From assembly GCF_964204645.1 (NCBI RefSeq), contig NC_134027.1:1706485-1770484 (forward strand): a stretch of DNA of 64,000 nt, given 5' to 3'. Under the pieces are notes generated by a model. That model made no database searches, had not been told where the DNA came from, and saw only the letters and a program-made list of their open reading frames with translations. The position numbers and the translations under genes are program-made. This stretch comes from Tubulanus polymorphus. Lineage: Eukaryota > Animalia > Nemertea. Shown here in pieces: positions 35,819 to 42,013 of this stretch. Within the stretch, counting starts at the first letter, position 1, and every line of letters starts with the position of its first letter.

Positions 35819-42013
<6,195 letters not shown>

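Follow-up and report, generated by a model that had tools for sequence, protein, structure and literature searches.

A ribbon-worm thioredoxin-glutathione reductase with two glycines between the cysteine and the likely selenocysteine of its tail

The gene and its surroundings

The stretch of DNA analysed here (the window; 64,000 nucleotides from the ribbon worm Tubulanus polymorphus) carries on its + strand a 14-exon gene (35819-42013). In a gene model that reads TGA as selenocysteine (Sec), it encodes a 603-residue fusion of a glutaredoxin (Grx) to a thioredoxin reductase (TrxR). Every exon border of the model has AG/GT, and the sole internal stop is codon 602. The RefSeq protein XP_074644255.1 from this species (601 residues) is 100% identical to the model product up to that UGA and stops at Gly601; the original prediction had expected standard annotation to truncate the protein at CGG, and this truncation has therefore occurred.

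Coding exons 1-3 (35819-35929, 36004-36064 and 36172-36258, + strand; the joints are present in sequencing runs X3 and X5) encode the dithiol glutaredoxin domain (Pfam PF00462, residues 24-86), complete with its CPFC (Cys32 at 35912, Cys35 at 35921), TVP and GGCD motifs. The FAD, NADPH and dimer domains, matched by the TIGR01438 profile, are encoded by exons 4-13 (39382-41858, +), from which all introns are spliced in X3. Here the N-terminal redox motif CVNVGC is intact (Cys160 at 39715 and Cys165 at 39730, equivalent to rat residues 59 and 64), as is the acid-base pair of His574 (41841) and Glu579 (41856), equivalent to rat 472 and 477. The 3.1 kb intron 3 holds an alternative first coding exon of 10 codons (37395-37424, +). 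It is the N-terminus of RefSeq isoform X2 (P0003), a predicted Grx-less, TrxR1-like protein with an identical tail; this exon has zero contig depth in runs X3 and X5.

The worm protein scores 727.8 bits against TIGR01438 (cut-off 475.85), which makes it a member of the high-Mr TrxRs and thioredoxin-glutathione reductases (TGRs), and 94.1 bits against GRX_euk (cut-off 87.25), the profile for the fused N-terminal glutaredoxin. It also matches Pfam PF07992, PF00070 and PF02852, and solved TGR and TrxR1 chains at E ~1e-217 to 1e-229. Its identity to most animal TGR matches is 60-66%, and at most 66% to any other full-length match listed. The profiles, the Pfam domains and the active-site motifs all agree with the earlier identification of the gene as a TGR.

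The stretch was found in six of ten sequencing runs. Two of them, X3 and X5, are one sample; we treat these as RNA because their contigs skip introns, though none of the runs is registered as RNA. In the X3 contig all 13 introns are removed, along with an intron in the 5' UTR (35383>35780, spliced in the X3/X5 contigs), and position 41858 is joined to 41939, from where the contig runs on to 43093. This RNA support consists of contigs from the one sample. Among the coding variants listed in the runs, 12 of 15 are synonymous, as expected for a gene under selection. The best explanation of the locus is an expressed, intact ribbon-worm TGR.

Elsewhere in the window, the - strand has a 1042-codon open frame in a GC-rich stretch (2175-5303; a weak Cornifin-like Pfam match falls below cut-off), an intronless 366-codon frame for a rhodopsin-family GPCR (28062-29162; PF00001, E 3.5e-10), a 582-codon open frame with no Pfam match (31134-32882) and a tRNA-Ile (AAT) gene (51396-51471), the sole tRNA in the window. 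The region 62001-64000, with a GC skew of 0.40 and three overlapping - strand open frames at 63165-63916, suggests a simple repeat.

The tail and the decoding of its UGA

The last exon (41939-42013, +) is in frame with exon 13 across a GT..AG intron that the spliced contig skips (41858>41939). Positions 41993-42013 read GGA TGT GGC GGA TGA GGT TAA, or G-C-G-G-(UGA)-G-stop: Cys599 (41996-41998) is followed by Gly-Gly (41999-42004), the UGA (42005-42007; likely Sec602), Gly603 and TAA. From 41990 to 42055 there are no substitutions or indels in the contigs of runs X1, X2, X3 and X5 or in the raw reads of X8 (80 reads aligned over the stretch; ~6-10x depth at the site), and the six extra bases, GGCGGA, are present throughout, the X8 reads and the spliced X3 contig included. 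X8 has two synonymous differences earlier in the last exon (41983 and 41989) with the tail unchanged. The five runs that agree at the tail come from three studies; X1 or X2 may be the source of the window itself. In the run contigs no other terminal exon follows exon 13, the sole joint listed going to 41939, and a G-C-UGA-G-stop motif is absent from both strands of the 64 kb window. The tail observation is confirmed as real: window sequence, exon translation, contigs and reads concur with the C-G-G-(UGA)-G ending originally described. The in-frame UGA is homologous to the Sec position of the family, lying two residues further from the Cys, and UGA-Gly-TAA preserves the family's penultimate-Sec arrangement.

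Downstream of the coding sequence is a SECIS-like hairpin of type II shape (42141-42210, +), with an AUGA core at 42151, an AAA loop, an apical stem and GA at ~42197. In a pattern scan the core begins 144 nt 3' of the UGA, in keeping with a type II SECIS that had been placed ~145 nt downstream; that assignment is plausible, with a match to Rfam RF00031 in which the AUGA/GA core and AAA loop are present, though its 22.5 bits (E 0.21) fall under the gathering threshold of 35. The folding energy of the region is ordinary (z -1.12). Shuffled 3' regions yield a pattern match in 1 of 300 trials with strict settings and in 9 of 500 with loose ones. Within the 64 kb window the strict scan gives two cores on the + strand and none on the - strand; a second SECIS-like match, at 39027 (+), lies within intron 3 of the gene and is probably due to chance. 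The sensitivity of the scan is limited, since the pattern found nothing in 609 nt behind two metagenomic TrxRs with canonical tails (L014 and L015, see below). The hairpin is contained in the X3 transcript contig spanning 41939-43093. No variants are listed in the runs between 42141 and 42210, a weak point by itself as there are few variants nearby. The position of the hairpin, the layout and the family context make it likely that the UGA is read as selenocysteine.

Distribution of the tail and of changes in its pocket

Animal TrxRs are regarded as having a fixed signature, in which Cys stands next to Sec (or next to a second Cys). The worm enzyme lacks the adjacent pair of the GCUG-type animal Sec-TrxR: Gly-Gly separates Cys599 from the UGA. 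We took a census of tails in 233 distinct protein matches, this species included (the best 120 of 1839 and of 7970). In 200 of them the final residue is a Cys lying exactly 26 residues from His-Pro, which is the register of worm Cys599; 30 others have a tail that could not be recognised, one more is truncated and one has the ending GCG. Solely the worm protein, 1 of the 233 among the matches listed, has Cys in that register followed by Gly-Gly. Database homologues stop at the Cys, and Sec adjacency in them is deduced from where they end; relative to these homologues, the worm enzyme has gained two residues (six bases) between Cys and UGA. CxxU had been described as not known from any metazoan TrxR, and among the 233 matches no other animal protein examined has this spacing. 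The protein matches listed (the best 120 of 1839 and of 7970) hold no named nemertean orthologue besides that of Tubulanus polymorphus, and there is no second Tubulanus TGR among the 120 best full-length matches. Runs X9 and X10, which bear the same species label and are probably one data set, have identical contigs with a clearly divergent TGR: two short pieces at 80% likeness (window 39709-39753 and 41125-41172), neither reaching the tail, possibly from a cryptic relative or a mislabelled sample.

The earlier proposal that the six bases arose by slippage, through a 9-nt near-duplication, survives in part. Around the tail, 9 of 11 bases do agree at period 9, but compared with homologues the gene has gained a net six bases and not nine, so a single 9-nt slippage is insufficient; moreover, some of the agreement is imposed by the codons for Gly and Cys/Sec. 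A 9-base duplication together with a 3-base loss would account for the gain.

In a phylogeny of 30 chosen rows and 216 columns, which also served for an AU test, the worm enzyme lies within the animal TrxR1/TGR clade (SH-aLRT 97), among proteins ending at Cys and away from the CGGGxC proteins; this tree and a further one of 129 rows are quick trees. A survey of eukaryotes (the best 150 of 3664 representatives) contains 89 proteins that end in Cys, 10 with a Plasmodium-like CGGGxCG, 7 with CC-G/S and 37 that are truncated or unreadable. Four TrxR-like proteins in it have the odd endings CDT (P0246), CAT (P0263 and P0274) and CET (P0265), and could be CxxU proteins cut at their UGA; three more end CKGCGF (P0212), CGCWG (P0243) and CCAG (P0292).

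One further CxxU tail came from metagenomes, in which a search for the pattern C-x(1-4)-UGA-G gave 16 loci; canonical spacing was excluded, and the scan therefore provides no denominator. Thirteen of the 16 are chance matches, and L014 and L015 are canonical-tail TrxRs in which the pattern matched out of frame. The one true case is L013 (L013:1-699), a eukaryote-type TrxR with the tail G-C-S-S-(UGA)-G-TAA; CxxU is therefore not unique to this worm. L013 is 45% identical to the worm enzyme over 226 residues, has TIGR01438 as its best NCBIfam match (as a fragment, below cut-off) and in the tree branches outside the animal clade of the worm enzyme. A SECIS-like hairpin at L013:902-943 was missed at the strict energy cut and found after the cut was loosened, the hairpin having been spotted by eye; 1 of 500 shuffles gives a match at the loosened cut, and an Rfam search of L013 and L014 returned no SECIS match. 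The L013 spacer lies within a TGC AGC AGC TGA run, which fits an origin by triplet slippage. On a plain reading of the tree, the worm and L013 tails would have arisen independently; the AU test does not reject the two as one clade (p 0.39). Judged by sequence, CxxU is exceptional among the animals examined and not unique among eukaryotes.

Another observation concerns the residues around the tail, which we compared in an alignment of 188 of 230 animal-type matches (at least 480 residues, full tail; rat numbering). The worm enzyme departs from the others at 9 of the 180 columns that are conserved at ≥95%; the other proteins have a median of 1 such departure, and 3 of the 188 have as many as 9. 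With an 85% threshold, 25 of the 188 others deviate as often. The nine departures are G54N, L112I, N113S, W114F, Y116F, V307L, I347V, T412S and P443I, to which N419S is added at a column conserved at 88%. A helix segment, I-S-F-S-F (40083-40097, +), replaces L-N-W-x-Y of rat 112-116: four of the five near-invariant columns in rat 108-116 are changed, and none of the 188 other proteins has four. The X3 contig shows no differences from the window over 40065-40170. Further along the + strand (41389-41607) are Val449 (rat Ile347; 41389), Ser514 (Thr412; 41584) and, in the guiding bar, Ser521 (Asn419; 41605). Elsewhere Tyr116 is conserved in 186 of 188 and Ile347 in all 188; Phe114 occurs in 6 of the 188 and is common in non-animal TrxRs ending at Cys. 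Side chains shrink at rat 113, 114, 116, 347, 412 and 419, and G54N, V307L and P443I go the other way, to larger residues. The TrxR1-like proteins P0046, P0080 and P0110 of sturgeon and bichir also have an altered helix 112-116 (SLRFGY, SLSFNY), with the usual Cys end.

Several of these sites have been described in other TrxRs: Trp114 is close to the Sec and makes contact with thioredoxin (PMC8189816, PMC4669772), a docking model has Tyr116 and Ile347 among the residues lining the Sec498 pocket (PMC10003455), and Asn419 belongs to the guiding bar, which restrains the tail (PMC10840350). Changes are enriched at literature-listed pocket sites (3 of 5, versus 6 of 175 other columns; Fisher p ~0.001), an enrichment that is post hoc because the literature was queried using the changed residues. 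Nine departures in 180 columns, with Sec- and thioredoxin-site residues among them, suggest that the changed sites, including W114F, Y116F and I347V, may constitute a co-adapted pocket. L013 retains Ile347, Thr412 and Val345 (its fragment is without 108-116), so a CxxU tail can exist without changes at these three sites.

Mechanism, alternatives and known systems

In this family electrons enter from NADPH through FAD and reach first the N-terminal dithiol, then the mobile tail of the partner subunit and finally thioredoxin; in TGRs the path extends to the Grx domain and GSSG (PMC6155587, PMC8914392). By established TrxR chemistry, Cys160-Cys165 of the worm enzyme, with His574'/Glu579', would reduce the C-terminal centre of the partner subunit, and the tail arm would then move outward and pass electrons to thioredoxin, or to the fused Grx domain and from there to GSSG. 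SECIS-driven readthrough would place Sec602. We propose this residue as the nucleophile on the substrate disulfide and Cys599 as the resolving thiol across the two glycines, a pair whose ring would have 14 members where the usual one has 8; the smaller side chains at rat 113, 114, 116, 347, 412 and 419 could leave space for this wider ring and for the lengthened arm. We think it probable that the gene encodes an expressed TGR, its UGA likely Sec, that works via a 14-membered Cys599-Sec602 ring in a co-adapted pocket.

Insertion of Ala between Cys and Sec costs the mammalian enzyme 4-6-fold, as against 100-300-fold for the Cys-Cys fly enzyme (PMC11508645), and W114F keeps ~50% of efficiency (PMC4669772). 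By analogy with these data, the worm enzyme is likely to be active, and with a loss of only 4-6-fold the functional shift, which had been suggested to touch substrate use, may be small. With a residue other than Sec the insertion would probably not have been viable: selenium's tolerance of ring size would explain how it could be fixed at all. The Grx fusion alone is no proof of GSSG reduction, as filarial Grx-TrxR fusions are described as being without GSSG activity (PMC8914392). More tentatively, and with somewhat more doubt than conviction, we suggest that this may be the first natural animal TrxR with non-adjacent Cys and Sec. A thioredoxin-like CxxU would have replaced the strained 8-membered ring, with co-evolution of the pocket and the Trx-docking helix, and one or more further eukaryote lineages would have reached the same solution on their own (L013, perhaps also the CDT/CET/CAT-ending proteins).

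Alternatively, the tail could be a tolerated accident, that is, a working CGGU selenoenzyme in which the insertion drifted to fixation because a larger ring is tolerated by Sec enzymes, the other substitutions being unrelated lineage divergence. The small penalty of Ala insertion in a Sec enzyme is consistent with this idea, as are the residual efficiency of W114F, the 25 of 188 proteins that deviate as often at the 85% threshold and the coexistence in L013 of CxxU with Ile347 and Thr412. We nevertheless consider it unlikely: at the 95% threshold 3 of 188 reach nine deviations and none has four in rat 108-116, and Tyr116 and Ile347 are otherwise kept almost throughout (186 and 188 of 188).

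A specialised paralogue, for which a second cytosolic TrxR ending GCUG would do the housekeeping, seems to us distinctly improbable. There is no second Tubulanus TGR among the 120 best full-length matches, the 64 kb window has neither a second copy nor a GCUG exon, and the RefSeq-predicted Grx-less isoform, with its identical tail, fits a general TrxR1 role. The present copy would, on that account, have turned toward GSSG, the Grx domain fused to it or some other substrate while its Trx-docking helix relaxed, which accords with an altered helix that includes the Trx-contact residue Trp114 and with the ceiling of 66% identity to any other full-length match listed.

We give still less credence to the UGA being a true stop, such that the protein ends Cys-Gly-Gly, acts as a monothiol-tail or N-terminal-centre-only reductase and retains the hairpin as a relic. 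RefSeq does end the protein there and the SECIS is under its gathering score. Truncation of this sort is the norm in these databases, however, given that 200 matches, with the entry for rat TrxR1 among them, terminate at the Cys immediately ahead of where the UGA is expected; in addition, neither UGA-GGT-TAA nor the SECIS core is disrupted, and no variant is listed in 42141-42210. That the assembly is wrong here, or that a different last exon supplies a GCUG end, is hardly credible in view of five concordant runs from three studies (one as raw reads), the sole joint from exon 13 to 41939 and the missing G-C-UGA-G-stop motif, even if a rare isoform could have been dropped from the contigs.

The worm tail is of interest to selenoenzyme specialists. 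Why TrxR needs selenium has long been debated (PMC4669772). If the worm protein is, as we favour, a Sec-containing TGR with a 14-membered ring in a co-adapted pocket, then nature has supplied a ring-expanded enzyme with likely compensating changes, in which that question could be addressed by simple swaps of the tail (CGGU, CU, CGGC or CC), each in a pocket that is adapted or not. The role of pocket residues 114, 116, 347, 412 and 419 may be to support the small ring; most TrxR inhibitors attack this site. Tail-motif searches for GCUG would miss the CGGU type, and RefSeq truncates the protein at the UGA. Were CxxU tails recurrent, they would amount to a hidden TrxR subtype masked by stop-codon annotation, in which selenium frees the enzyme from ring geometry.

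With animal TGR and TrxR1 (TXNRD1, TXNRD3; tapeworm and schistosome TGR; PDB 5w1l, 2v6o, 3ean; TIGR01438) the worm enzyme has in common the Grx, FAD, NADPH and interface domains, and it shares CVNVGC, His-Pro-x3-Glu, the register of the tail Cys, the penultimate UGA and, as a SECIS-like hairpin, a candidate SECIS in the 3' UTR. In contrast to these enzymes, which have no residue between Cys and UGA, it has two Gly, and it carries L112I, N113S, W114F, Y116F, I347V, T412S, N419S, P443I and G54N at nearly fixed columns. The animal tails given in reviews are GCUG, GCCG, SCCS and TCCS (PMC6155587, PMC6272602, PMC11508645). We found no natural CxxU TrxR in the mainly open-access literature; the supplements of PMC7539508 or PMC3473315 could hold one.

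The Plasmodium-type tail is given as GCGGGKCG (PMC6272602). It resembles the worm tail in its non-adjacent redox pair and glycine-rich linker, and Phe occupies the Trp114 position in 6 of 6 full-length CGGGxC proteins aligned, as it does in the worm. On the other hand, the Plasmodium-type enzymes have a four-residue spacer, Cys-Cys without Sec and a place outside the worm's animal clade, whereas the worm enzyme has a two-residue spacer and a UGA in place of the CGGGxC dithiol tail, and nests with animals. The suggestion that the worm tail is intermediate between the animal and Plasmodium types thus stands for the spacing but not otherwise, the enzyme being inside the animal clade (SH-aLRT 97).

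An engineered mammalian TrxR with Ala between Cys and Sec likewise has an expanded ring, but it is artificial, its insertion is Ala rather than Gly and its pocket is unadapted. The parent enzyme used by Eckenroth et al. in 2007 was reportedly the mitochondrial mouse form, and their two-Ala version would, it is said, give the same CxxU ring. L013, which had no match as a described enzyme in the literature and databases searched, is like the worm enzyme in its CxxU spacing, penultimate UGA and SECIS-like hairpin; it differs in its Ser-Ser spacer and in being non-animal-looking.
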